A DNA stretch of 64,000 bases, from the sequence record OP172784. One strand, written 5' to 3'. Shown here piece by piece: positions 28,806-29,637 of this stretch (position 1 is the stretch's first letter; each line of letters starts with the position of its first letter). This stretch comes from Escherichia phage ECO07P1. The position numbers were made by a program, and so were the translations under genes. The notes beneath the pieces were generated by a model. The model was not told the DNA's origin. It saw nothing but the letters and a program-made list of their open reading frames with translations, and ran no database searches.

Positions 28806-28878
28806 TGGGAATTAGCCAAGTTGGTAAGGCACTGGATTTTGATTCCAGGATGCAAAGGTTCGAGTCCTTTATTCCCAG
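28806..28878 (+). tRNA. tRNA-Gln (anticodon UUG)
   Basis: Cloverleaf by eye: acceptor TGGGAAT/ATTCCCA, anticodon loop TTTTGAT, T-arm GGTTCGAGTCC. Confidence 0.85.
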
Positions 28879-28879
28879 C

Positions 28880-28966
28880 GCGAGAATGGTCAAATTGGTA
28901 AAGGCACAGCACTTAAAATGCTGCGGAATGATTTCCTTGTGGGTTCGAGTCCCACTTCTCGCACCA
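28880..28966 (+). tRNA. tRNA-Leu (anticodon UAA), long variable arm, CCA encoded
   Basis: Acceptor GCGAGAA/TTCTCGC, anticodon loop CTTAAAA, T-arm GGTTCGAGTCC, 3' ACCA. Confidence 0.85.
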
Positions 28967-28971
28967 AATTT

Positions 28972-29045
28972 GCGGATATCGTATAATGGCATTACCTCAG
29001 ACTTCCAATCTGATGATGTGAGTTCGATTCTCATTATCCGCTCCA
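28972..29045 (+). tRNA. tRNA-Gly (anticodon UCC)
   Basis: Acceptor GCGGATA/TATCCGC, anticodon loop CTTCCAA, T-arm AGTTCGATTCT, 3' CCA. Confidence 0.85.
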
Positions 29046-29055
29046 ATTTAATTTA

Positions 29056-29129
29056 CTCCGTGTAGCTCAGTTTGGTAGAGCGTCTGCTTTGGGAGCAGAA
29101 TGTCGCAGGTTCAAATCCTGCCGCGGAGA
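29056..29129 (+). tRNA. tRNA-Pro (anticodon UGG)
   Basis: Acceptor CTCCGTG/CGCGGAG, anticodon loop CTTTGGG, T-arm GGTTCAAATCC. Confidence 0.85.
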
Positions 29130-29131
29130 CT

Positions 29132-29221
29132 GGAGGCGTGGCAGAGTGGTTTAATGCACCGGTCTTGAAAACCGGCAGTCGCTCCGGCGACTCATAGGTT
29201 CAAATCCTATCGCCTCCGCCA
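29132..29221 (+). tRNA. tRNA-Ser (anticodon UGA), long variable arm
   Basis: Acceptor GGAGGCG/CGCCTCC, anticodon loop CTTGAAA, T-arm GGTTCAAATCC, 3' GCCA. Confidence 0.85.
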
Positions 29222-29226
29222 GTTTT

Positions 29227-29302
29227 GCTGATTTAGCTTAGTAGGTAGAGCAACTCACTTGTAATGAGAAGGTCGGCGGTTCGATTCCGTCAATCAGCAC
29301 CA
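29227..29302 (+). tRNA. tRNA-Thr (anticodon UGU)
   Basis: Acceptor GCTGATT/AATCAGC, anticodon loop CTTGTAA, T-arm GGTTCGATTCC, 3' ACCA. Confidence 0.85.
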
Positions 29303-29303
29303 A

Positions 29304-29378
29304 GGCCCTGTAGCTGGAAGGTTCAAGCAAGCGACTCATAATCGCCAGATGGTGGTTCAATTCCACCCAGGGCCACCA
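29304..29378 (+). tRNA. tRNA with CAU anticodon (Ile2 lysidine-type by T4 analogy, or Met)
   Basis: Acceptor GGCCCTG/CAGGGCC, anticodon loop TCATAAT, T-arm GGTTCAATTCC, 3' ACCA. Confidence 0.75.
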
Positions 29379-29391
29379 AATTAAGAATTAA

Positions 29392-29478
29392 GGGGAGTTA
29401 TCCCGTAGAGGTAGCGGTGTGGACTGTAAATCCATTGTCATTGCGACTCGGGTGGTTCGACTCCATCACTCCCCACCA
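29392..29478 (+). tRNA. tRNA-Tyr (anticodon GUA), class II long variable arm
   Basis: Acceptor GGGGAGT/ACTCCCC, anticodon stem GTGGA/TCCAT with loop CTGTAAA, T-arm GGTGGTTCGACTCCATC, 3' ACCA. Confidence 0.75.
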
Positions 29479-29482
29479 ATTT

Positions 29483-29557
29483 GGATGTGTAGCTCAATGG
29501 CAGAGCGATCGCCTGTTAAGCGATTGGTTATAGGTTCGAATCCTATCACGTCCGCCA
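29483..29557 (+). tRNA. tRNA-Asn (anticodon GUU)
   Basis: Acceptor GGATGTG/CACGTCC, anticodon loop CTGTTAA, T-arm GGTTCGAATCC, 3' GCCA. Confidence 0.8.
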
Positions 29558-29561
29558 AATC

Positions 29562-29637
29562 CGAGGCATAGCTCAGAAGGAAGAGCAAGGACCTTCTAAG
29601 TCCTAGGTCGTAGGTTCGATCCCTACTGCCTCGACCA
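29562..29637 (+). tRNA. tRNA-Arg (anticodon UCU)
   Basis: Acceptor CGAGGCA/TGCCTCG, anticodon loop CTTCTAA, T-arm GGTTCGATCCC, 3' ACCA. Confidence 0.85.

Follow-up and report, generated by a model that had tools for sequence, protein, structure and literature searches.

The tRNA locus of Escherichia phage ECO07P1 raises the question of why ten tRNA genes, among them tRNA-Tyr(GUA) and tRNA-Asn(GUU), stand in one uninterrupted array where phage T4 carries eight in two subclusters, and whether the two additional genes were gained in this lineage. An earlier note had described the array from the nucleotide sequence and had taken both its contiguity and its extra genes as signs of a distinct T-even lineage with lineage-specific tRNA gain. 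ARAGORN, applied to the whole 64 kb stretch analysed here (the window), found exactly ten tRNA genes, all on the plus strand at 28806–29637, in the order Gln, Leu, Gly, Pro, Ser, Thr, CAU-anticodon gene, Tyr, Asn, and Arg. Rfam RF00005 recovered the same ten genes, every one above the gathering score, nine of them at 59–74 bits and tRNA-Tyr at 30.2 bits (cutoff, 29). The two programs agreed with the coordinates, order, and anticodons given in the earlier note, and both called Tyr and Asn. Acceptor stems were paired at 7/7 positions and the T-loop motif GTTCRA was readable in all ten tRNAs. The spacers, described earlier as 1–13 nt, were 1, 5, 10, 2, 5, 1, 13, 4, and 4 nt in order when measured from the mature 3′ ends (0–13 nt by ARAGORN ends), with tight pairs at Gln-Leu, Pro-Ser, and Thr-CAU (1, 2, and 1 nt). 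The mixed CCA encoding reported earlier was likewise found, CCA being present in eight genes and absent from Gln and Pro.

The first gene, tRNA-Gln(UUG) (28806–28879; 67.4 bits), ends with G73 and one C, followed directly by tRNA-Leu(UAA) (28880–28966), which encodes CCA and is identical to its counterparts in T4, T2, and T6 at 87/87 positions. tRNA-Gly(UCC) (28972–29045) encodes CCA and matches T4 at 73 of 74 positions. tRNA-Pro(UGG) (29056–29130) ends with A73 and CU before tRNA-Ser(UGA) (29132–29221), which has a long variable arm, is identical to that of T2 (90/90), and encodes CCA here but not in T4. tRNA-Thr(UGU) (29227–29302; CCA encoded) shows 72/76 identity with T4 and lies 1 nt before the CAU gene (29304–29378); T2 carries an ORF at the position corresponding to Thr. 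The remaining genes are tRNA-Tyr(GUA) (29392–29478; long variable arm, A73, and encoded CCA), tRNA-Asn(GUU) (29483–29557; 74.1 bits, G73, and encoded CCA), and tRNA-Arg(UCU) (29562–29637; CCA encoded). Asn is identical to that of T2 (75/75), and Arg shares 75/76 positions with T2 and 74/76 with Dhakavirus CLB_P2, with 37/76 matched to T4. Features of synthetase identity were present in Tyr (A73), Asn (G73), and the CAU tRNA (C4-G69/C5-G68). Sequence comparison among homologs revealed that allele changes in the stems of Gln, Pro, and Tyr are compensated, including those that separate the Gln anticodon stem and the Pro stems from T4, which indicates that tRNA structure is under selection.

The CAU gene is best read as a tRNA of the Ile2 type, which would carry lysidine and decode AUA, the Met label being less fitting. 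TilS substrates combine an anticodon arm of the Ile2 type with the pairs C4-G69 and C5-G68, and elongator Met tRNA has U4-A69 and A5-U68. The closest E. coli match was the annotated tRNA-Ile(CAU) (81.6% over the full length), and a Met identity was rejected once the gene had been aligned to Ile2, metT, and metU of E. coli, as the C4-G69/C5-G68 pairs and an anticodon arm identical to that of E. coli Ile2 were present, unlike in metT/metU. Host TilS is thus predicted to convert the product to an AUA reader, and in annotations the gene should be labelled Ile2 instead of Met. The gene is identical to that of T2 (75/75); it diverges from T4 tRNA-Ile beyond about nt 20, and 29/75 positions matched in a local alignment with the latter.

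The tRNA region lies on the early-gene strand, between the internal-protein/trna.2–4 ORFs and rnaD-rnaC, and is flanked by sequence collinear with T4, with rnaD, rnaC, and the terminator among the shared elements. Internal head protein PHROG matches were found upstream, and a homolog of T4 trna.2 was also aligned. Downstream on the plus strand follows an ORF of 116 aa (ORF116; 29654–30004), called trna.2 in T2L and absent from T4. Its sole PHROG match was PHROG 3355, a family of unknown function; searches of Pfam, NCBIfam, and PDB sequences gave no match, and T2L primer 24 maps to its 5′ end with one mismatch. The homologs of the T4 stable RNAs rnaD (species 2; 30002–30120, plus strand) and rnaC (species 1; 30127–30265, plus strand) match T4 at 106/119 and 136/139 positions, respectively, and the latter carries a T-arm-like CCGGGTTCGAATCCCGG. 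An intrinsic-terminator-like hairpin of 10 bp, seven of them G-C, followed by a T run (30316–30349, plus strand), which T4, T2, and phage 132 share, likely ends the tRNA-rnaD-rnaC transcription unit. A scan immediately upstream of the array gave no convincing promoter, sigma-70-like matches being no more frequent than in shuffles. A MotA-box-like TTGCTT at 28781 was discarded as being too close, since transcription would start inside Gln. By analogy with T4, the genes would be transcribed as polycistronic precursors. Processing would then fall to host RNase P at the 5′ ends, to host 3′ exonucleases in the spacers, and to the host CCA-adding enzyme, which would complete Gln and Pro.

This ten-gene array is already known as an annotated and published Tequatrovirus (T-even) tRNA operon. 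The window belongs to a Tequatrovirus with 99.0% DNA identity to phage 132 over 28700–29700, and IME340 is also about 99% identical. Phage 132 is annotated with the same ten genes in identical order, and the gene set of the window is also that of IME340, ime09, and Shigella Tequatroviruses, for which it has been published (PMC11993411); only point differences and a CAU-Tyr spacer 4 nt longer here (13 versus 9 nt) set the window apart from phage 132 and these relatives. GenBank phage records containing at least 80% of a segment numbered 486 for Thr-CAU-Tyr and at least 377 for Tyr-Asn-Arg, T2 being among the latter; the Ile-segB-Arg arrangement of T4 was present in only 126 records. The sister phage fPS-65 has an extra tRNA-His between Asn and Arg. 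T2L/T2 (EMBL AJ880101; Brok-Volchanskaya et al. 2008, PMC2330249), in which the Met/Ile-Tyr-Asn-Arg block and the ORF were described in 2008, lacks segB as does the window, and has the same order of Gln, Leu, Gly, Pro, and Ser, then CAU, Tyr, Asn, Arg, the 116-aa ORF, rnaD, and rnaC. In addition to the identical CAU, Asn, and Ser genes, T2 shares the SegB target in Asn (see below), but it differs by a 133-aa ORF in place of tRNA-Thr, by T4-type Gln and Pro alleles, and by another rnaD central hairpin. With annotation in hundreds of sequenced Tequatroviruses and experimental dissection of the variable right half in 2008 and 2026, the array carries little weight as a discovery.

Comparison with T4 located the difference precisely. 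T4 has the same locus and flanks, the same first seven positions from Gln to the CAU tRNA, and the same tight pairs (Gln-Leu, Pro-Ser, and Thr-Ile). As stated in the earlier note, its eight tRNA genes are split, seven being followed by segB and then Arg; it has neither Tyr nor Asn, and four of its genes (Gln, Pro, Ser, and Ile) lack CCA, as against two here. In blastn of the window against T4, only 28409–29323 (94.9% identity) and 30004–30346 (93.9%) aligned in this region. The intervening 29324–30003, without detectable similarity to T4, contains the 3′ part of the CAU gene, Tyr, Asn, Arg, and ORF116 here, and the 3′ part of Ile, segB, and Arg in T4. The genes missing from T4 therefore sit exactly at the segB cassette, and the difference is attributable to replacement of 29324–30003 by a cassette of Ile, segB, and a different Arg. 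tblastn with T4 SegB detected no homolog in the 64 kb window (best E = 2.9), and none of the open reading frames of the window falls between the CAU tRNA and Arg. In line with the earlier note, the phage is not T4; the difference is larger than Tyr and Asn, since the CAU and Arg genes also differ in sequence from T4 Ile and Arg. Contiguity reflects the missing segB homing-endonuclease cassette and not a rearrangement in ECO07P1.

The preferred SegB site was mapped within T2L tRNA-Asn, with the form GGTTCRANTCC ... CCAR, and in T4 x T2L crosses 99.6% of the progeny inherited segB while the Met, Tyr, Asn, Arg, and ORF markers of T2L disappeared (PMC2330249). In the window, the predicted preferred site has its core, GGTTCGAATCC, at 29533–29543 in tRNA-Asn and runs on to the 3′-end CCAA. 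The core motif occurred nine times in the window against 0.12 expected, only in eight tRNAs and rnaC. By analogy with those crosses, SegB would cut preferentially inside tRNA-Asn, and repair from a segB-positive donor would swap the block of CAU gene, Tyr, Asn, Arg, and ORF for Ile-segB-Arg. The window would accordingly represent the uninvaded allele, predicted to be susceptible to SegB homing.

Codon use was compared between 80 mechanically called ORFs of the window and 42 annotated E. coli K-12 genes from a 50 kb sample, a reference that may differ from the usage of the true host. Tyr (1.76-fold) and Asn (1.65-fold) were the top two amino acids enriched in the phage relative to this sample, and for every tRNA of the array a codon that it reads was enriched 1.5-fold or more (one-sided Mann-Whitney test, p = 1e-5 for the most-used codon of each tRNA and 7e-4 for Watson-Crick cognates). 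The overuse of Tyr and Asn, whose codon usage the earlier note had suggested comparing in late genes, fits tRNA supply. When early and late genes were told apart by strand, the evidence was supportive but not decisive: Asn use was 6.89% on the late, structural-gene strand versus 5.64% on the other, and Tyr use was equal on both (4.57%). The products would top up the host tRNA pool for codons and amino acids overused by the AT-rich phage, namely the A-ending codons CAA, UUA, GGA, CCA, UCA, ACA, AUA, and AGA, alongside Tyr and Asn. Supply is not the full explanation of the array content, as Lys was enriched as much as Asn (1.62-fold), yet the array has no tRNA-Lys, and His was the least enriched amino acid (0.63-fold), yet sister phages add tRNA-His. 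Taken together, we are confident that the locus is best explained as a complete, segB-free Tequatrovirus operon, comprising ten tRNAs head to tail, a small ORF, rnaD, rnaC, and a terminator, which would function in codon and amino-acid supply, with segB homing behind the difference from T4. An additional role of tRNA-Tyr in this reading, very likely given the near-identical T6 gene shown to act against Septu, would be as a buffer against immune nucleases destroying the host tRNA-Tyr.

The reading that competes most seriously is that Tyr, Asn, and also Thr are kept mainly as counter-defence, codon supply being secondary, with the phage genes replacing tRNAs cut by the PtuAB nuclease of Septu or retron-Eco7 (Tyr) and by AriB of PARIS (Asn and Thr). 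Septu cleaves tRNA-Tyr, and the tRNA-Tyr of T6, identical to that of the window at 85/87 positions, rescues infection in a dose-dependent manner; T4, without Tyr, is strongly restricted by Septu and T2 is resistant, though the authors did not ascribe this resistance to the T2 tRNA-Tyr (PMC13096335). The tRNA-Tyr of T5 counters retron-Eco7 (PMC11555353). A phage carrying tRNA-Tyr may plate better than T4 on hosts with Septu or retron-Eco7. On the other hand, T6 tRNA-Tyr was reported to be relatively unstable and itself cut by Septu, full escape requiring amplification (PMC13096335); Tyr is a single-copy gene here, with neither the tandem repeat of T6 escape mutants nor an adjoining promoter signal above chance to indicate a raised dosage. 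Substrates of AriB in E. coli are tRNA-Lys, Thr(UGU), and Asn(GUU), which it cleaves at U36AAUC↓A/C41 (PMC12409363). The corresponding sequence is UAAGC↓G in the window Asn (G39 and G41, versus U39 and C41 in E. coli asnT) and UAAUG↓A in Thr (G40, versus C40 in thrU), and the allele differences from T4 fall entirely (Gln) or largely (Pro) in the anticodon arm. Codon use also leaves the tRNA-His of sister phages unexplained, a further point for counter-defence. However, resistance of the Asn and Thr variants to AriB is putative, and the Dhakavirus Asn keeps UAAUC↓A. ARAGORN found no tRNA-Lys, also needed for escape from PARIS, in the array or elsewhere in the 64 kb window, which implies that the characterized PARIS would still block the phage. 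Moreover, the pair of amino acids that codon supply would predict is precisely Tyr and Asn. Counter-defence as the main reason for keeping these genes is consequently possible but doubtful. A more specific version, in which putatively nuclease-resistant Asn (G39, G41) and Thr (G40) form with Tyr a counter-defence module in the right half of the array and the Gln and Pro anticodon-stem alleles stem from the same arms race, is speculative and, on balance, unlikely; if it were true, SegB homing would gain selfish spread at the cost of immunity evasion, as it removes Asn and in some cases Tyr.

The array content may instead be mostly a passive outcome of selfish-element traffic, the tRNA set depending on invasion by segB or other ORFs and on cassette swaps between phages, so that ten genes rather than eight would have little adaptive meaning. 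Whole-cassette differences among relatives favour this explanation: T4 has eight tRNAs with segB, T6 six to seven with segB, T2 nine with an ORF for Thr, fPS-65 eleven with His, and a Dhakavirus three (CAU-Asn-Arg, with the same CAU gene as the window and no Tyr). T6 (Chihara et al. 2026, PMC13096335) has its tRNA-Tyr, with the same variable arm, also after the CAU tRNA; the T6 array has no Pro, Ser, or Asn gene, carries Ile and Arg of the T4 type, and has segB beside Tyr, which drives tandem amplification, whereas the window has neither segB nor amplification. Replacement driven by SegB has been demonstrated, and the T4 tRNA region was described as non-essential (PMC2330249). In the unrelated Vequintavirus navn, the CAU gene (74/75) and Tyr (84/87) are nearly identical to those of the window while the neighbouring tRNAs differ. 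On the other hand, hundreds of genomes keep these genes intact, with stem changes compensated, the tRNA set closely matches the phage/host codon ratio, and T6 tRNA-Tyr has a demonstrated fitness effect (PMC13096335). We consider it rather unlikely that selfish traffic accounts for most of the content, and retain supply by a segB-free operon as the preferred reading.

Far less probable is the proposal that Tyr and Asn were gained recently and mark a distinct T-even branch. The absence of both genes from T4 is in its favour, and an earlier horizontal origin of Tyr is plausible, as Tyr is missing from the Dhakavirus array and nearly identical in a Vequintavirus. Lineage-specific gain, however, is difficult to reconcile with the Tyr-Asn-Arg segment in at least 377 phage records including T2, with the 486 records of the neighbouring segment, and with the same order annotated in phage 132. 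The position of the missing genes at the segB cassette, with the SegB target inside Asn, points the same way. Because Asn-Arg together with the same CAU gene is shared with a Dhakavirus, a member of a sister genus, a loss of Asn in T4 and T6 is more probable than a gain here, and the gene looks ancestral. Tyr may have been acquired horizontally at the genus level, given its 84/87 identity in a Vequintavirus. Since segB has made T4 the derived form, tRNAs that look "extra" beside T4 are not to be taken for gains.

That tRNA-Tyr is a decaying pseudogene barely passing detection, as its Rfam score just above the cutoff, its irregular D-stem (U-G, C-G, a C-C mismatch, and C-G), and a minimum-free-energy fold with no cloverleaf and the D-stem unformed, no better than shuffled sequences (z = -0.9), might suggest, is extremely improbable and was rejected because of the acceptor pairing, the covariation, and the findings in T6. 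The low score is explained by misregistration, cmscan starting this long-variable-arm tRNA 2 nt late and thereby breaking the acceptor stem, for which the ARAGORN boundaries give a perfect 7 bp; A73, the GUA anticodon, and the encoded CCA are also intact. The gene is 86/87 identical to that of T2, and pair 30-40 covaries among homologs, being G-C here, G-U in T2 and T6, and A-U in navn. The irregular D-arm sequence is also present in the T6 homolog, which is expressed as seen on a northern blot and works in rescue (PMC13096335).

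Across the 64 kb window, ARAGORN called ten tRNA genes, which all lie on the + strand at 28806-29637, in the order Gln(UUG), Leu(UAA), Gly(UCC), Pro(UGG), Ser(UGA), Thr(UGU), CAU, Tyr(GUA), Asn(GUU) and Arg(UCU). The same ten genes exceeded the gathering score of the Rfam tRNA model, with 59-74 bits for nine genes and 30.2 bits against a cutoff of 29 for Tyr. The Tyr score is low because the model begins this long-variable-arm tRNA 2 bases late in the Rfam alignment, breaking the acceptor stem; with the ARAGORN boundaries, acceptor stem pairing was 7/7 in all ten tRNAs, Tyr included. 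Spacers measured from the mature 3′ ends were, in order, 1, 5, 10, 2, 5, 1, 13, 4 and 4 nt, and CCA was encoded in 8 of the 10 genes, being absent from Gln and Pro. The earlier note's description of a tight ten-gene array with mixed CCA encoding was thus right on every point. The CAU-Tyr spacer (29379-29391) is 13 nt long (AATTAAGAATTAA) versus 9 nt in phages 132 and fPS-65, and from its sequence the longer form looks like a small AATTAA duplication.

The best match of the CAU gene (29304-29378) in 5,423 E. coli genomes was annotated tRNA-Ile(CAU), with 81.6% identity over the full length. In the alignment the two share C4-G69, C5-G68 and the entire anticodon arm, unlike E. coli metT and metU, which have T4-A69 and A5-T68. 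Substrate recognition by TilS rests on the acceptor pairs C4-G69 and C5-G68, and the CAU tRNA of T4 itself is established as tRNA-Ile2 decoding AUA. Because of these acceptor pairs, we read the CAU gene as tRNA-Ile2, decoding AUA. The "Met" label given by ARAGORN and GenBank is a default call and was rejected on the Ile2-type acceptor pairs and anticodon arm.

This ten-gene tRNA operon is common in T2-like and IME340-like Tequatroviruses and has been described before. Window 28700-29700 matched 904 phage records, the best being the Tequatroviruses Escherichia phage 132 (99.0%) and IME340 (98.9%); phage 132 has the same ten tRNA genes annotated in unchanged order, and precisely these ten tRNAs were listed for four Shigella Tequatroviruses in a 2024 paper (PMC11993411). 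The Thr-CAU-Tyr stretch was covered to at least 80% in 486 records, Tyr-Asn-Arg in 377 and the T4 Ile-segB-Arg arrangement in 126. In Yersinia phage fPS-65 and some other relatives, a tRNA-His gene lying between Asn and Arg brings the number to eleven; this tRNA-His(GUG) rides on an insertion of about 190 bp found in many Tequatroviruses (2355-2548 of the fPS-65 record, L002).

The T4 order is Gln, Leu, Gly, Pro, Ser, Thr, Ile, then segB (a GIY-YIG homing endonuclease gene), Arg, rnaD and rnaC. The window aligned to T4 at 28409-29323 (94.9%) and 30004-30346 (93.9%), with nothing aligned between. T4 therefore differs by more than the lack of two genes: the non-aligning 680 bp (29324-30003) span the larger part of the CAU tRNA together with Tyr, Asn, Arg and an ORF of 116 aa, and the Ile and Arg genes of T4 differ in sequence from the CAU and Arg genes of the window. 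In T2, by contrast, the CAU and Arg tRNAs are 75/75 and 75/76 identical to those of the window, and the order is Gln, Leu, Gly, Pro, Ser, an ORF where Thr would be, CAU, Tyr, Asn, Arg and the same 116-aa ORF. In T6, Gln, Leu and Gly are followed by a Pro/Thr chimera, an Ile of T4 type, Tyr, segB and an Arg of T4 type. The chimera, annotated as tRNA-Thr (1431-1505 of the T6 record, L005), joins a Pro 5′ acceptor strand to a Thr body and received no ARAGORN call; it looks like a deletion product that took out Pro and Ser.

Brok-Volchanskaya et al. sequenced the tRNA regions of T2L, RB1 and RB3 and found that SegB prefers to cut within T2L tRNA-Asn, at a 27-bp site with GGTTCRANTCC that ends near CCAR (PMC2330249). 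In T4 x T2L crosses, segB passed to 99.6% of the progeny and a T2L segment of about 1250 bp (Met, Tyr, Asn, Arg and two ORFs) was lost (PMC2330249). The tRNA-Asn of the window is identical to that of T2, with GGTTCGAATCC at 29533 followed by ...CCAA, and the 64 kb window encodes no homolog of SegB; it therefore carries an uninvaded allele, a predicted target of SegB homing. At this locus, Dhakavirus CLB_P2 carries just three tRNAs, of CAU type (69/75), Asn (62/75) and Arg (74/76), followed directly by rnaD, and the stem changes between its Asn and that of the window are compensated. Asn-Arg of the window type is thus common to more than one genus. The earlier note had taken Tyr and Asn as lineage-specific gains beyond the T4 set; T4 does lack both, but a lineage-specific gain of Asn is not supported, and the missing Asn of T4 and T6 is best read as a loss via the segB cassette. 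The split eight-gene arrangement of T4 is a derived state due to this cassette. A lineage-specific gain of Tyr is likewise unsupported, and Tyr would be at most an old genus-level event: CLB_P2 has no Tyr, and the Vequintavirus navn, from a different subfamily, has a tRNA-Tyr 84/87 and a CAU tRNA 74/75 identical to those at window 29304-29478 (navn record L013, 1201-1286 and 1772-1845). The Thr, Ser and Arg genes of navn are unrelated to those of the window, and individual tRNA genes apparently pass from one phage family to another.

Base changes among related genes provide evidence that the tRNA genes are under structural selection. Gln differs from T4 at 8 positions, all in the anticodon arm, with every stem change compensated; Pro has compensated changes in the anticodon, T and acceptor stems; and the Tyr pair 30-40 is G-C in the window, G-U in T2 and T6, and A-U in navn. 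Among Tequatroviruses, Gln (28806-28879) and Pro (29056-29130) each have two alleles, one in the window and fPS-65 and the other in T4, T2 and T6; the differences between alleles are mostly anticodon-stem changes, all of them compensated, and in Gln positions 32 and 38 differ as well. The Tyr D-stem is interrupted by a C-C mismatch, and the minimum-free-energy fold of Tyr was no cloverleaf and no better than that of shuffled sequences, which agrees with the reported instability of T6 tRNA-Tyr (PMC13096335).

By analogy with T4, transcription of the array would yield a polycistronic precursor that runs as far as the terminator past rnaC, and from which host RNase P and 3′ exonucleases would release the tRNAs. 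The three tight pairs of T4, Gln-Leu, Pro-Ser and Thr-Ile, are retained in the window with spacers of 1-2 nt. Gln and Pro, without encoded CCA, would rely on the host CCA-adding enzyme; since four genes are without CCA in T4 (Gln, Pro, Ser and Ile) versus two here, the window array would depend less on this enzyme.

Codon usage in 80 window ORFs, called mechanically (17,779 codons), was set against that in 42 annotated E. coli K-12 genes (14,790 codons). The comparison, proposed in the earlier note, favours tRNA supply, as Tyr (1.76x) and Asn (1.65x) were the two most phage-enriched amino acids. The array reads all six of the most enriched codons (AGA, AUA, UCA, GGA, ACA and AAU), and every one of the ten tRNAs reads some codon enriched at least 1.5x (one-sided Mann-Whitney p = 1e-5). 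Codon use thus supports tRNA supply but is incomplete as an explanation: Lys is as enriched in the phage as Asn, yet has no tRNA in the array, and His is the least enriched amino acid (0.63x vs E. coli), so that the tRNA-His of sister phages is not accounted for by codon supply.

Counter-defence is another likely role, at least for Tyr. Septu PtuAB cleaves tRNA-Tyr in the variable arm; T4, without tRNA-Tyr, is strongly restricted and T2 is resistant, and T6 tRNA-Tyr rescues infection in a dose-dependent manner (Chihara et al., PMC13096335). The window tRNA-Tyr likely buffers against Septu, since it is 85/87 identical to T6 tRNA-Tyr with the same variable arm. Such buffering would act via dosage, because T6 tRNA-Tyr is itself cleaved (PMC13096335); the Tyr gene of the window is single copy, with no segB there to amplify it. 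The case of PARIS is suggestive only. AriB cleaves E. coli tRNA-Lys, Thr(UGU) and Asn(GUU) at U36AAUC|A/C41 (PMC12409363), and relative to the host tRNAs phage Asn differs at positions 39 and 41 and phage Thr at position 40, changes that might confer resistance; the array contains no tRNA-Lys.

Past Arg, the 116-aa ORF (29654-30004) is missing in T4 and CLB_P2, and its stop codon overlaps the start of the rnaD homolog; Pfam, NCBIfam, PHROGs and PDB gave it no functional annotation. Alignment to T4 placed rnaD at 30002-30120 and rnaC at 30127-30265, followed by a strong terminator-like hairpin at 30316-30349. We know of no function for these stable RNAs of T4, and no Rfam family reached its gathering score with either homolog. 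For the central rnaD hairpin (about 30055-30100) there are two unrelated alleles, one in the window and T4 and the other in T2 and phage 132, and rnaC carries a T-arm-like CCGGGTTCGAATCCCGG (30240-30256), the sole SegB core motif outside tRNAs in the 64 kb. Upstream, at 27235-28174, three consecutive small ORFs match internal head/virion protein PHROGs and have in common the N-terminus MKT(F/C)K(E/K)FI, which we take to be the T4 capsid-targeting sequence. Downstream, a 187-aa ORF (30434-30997; PHROG 2280, unknown function) begins with a similar MKTYAEFLTEAA. The array thus lies within a variable stretch that has many internal-protein genes.
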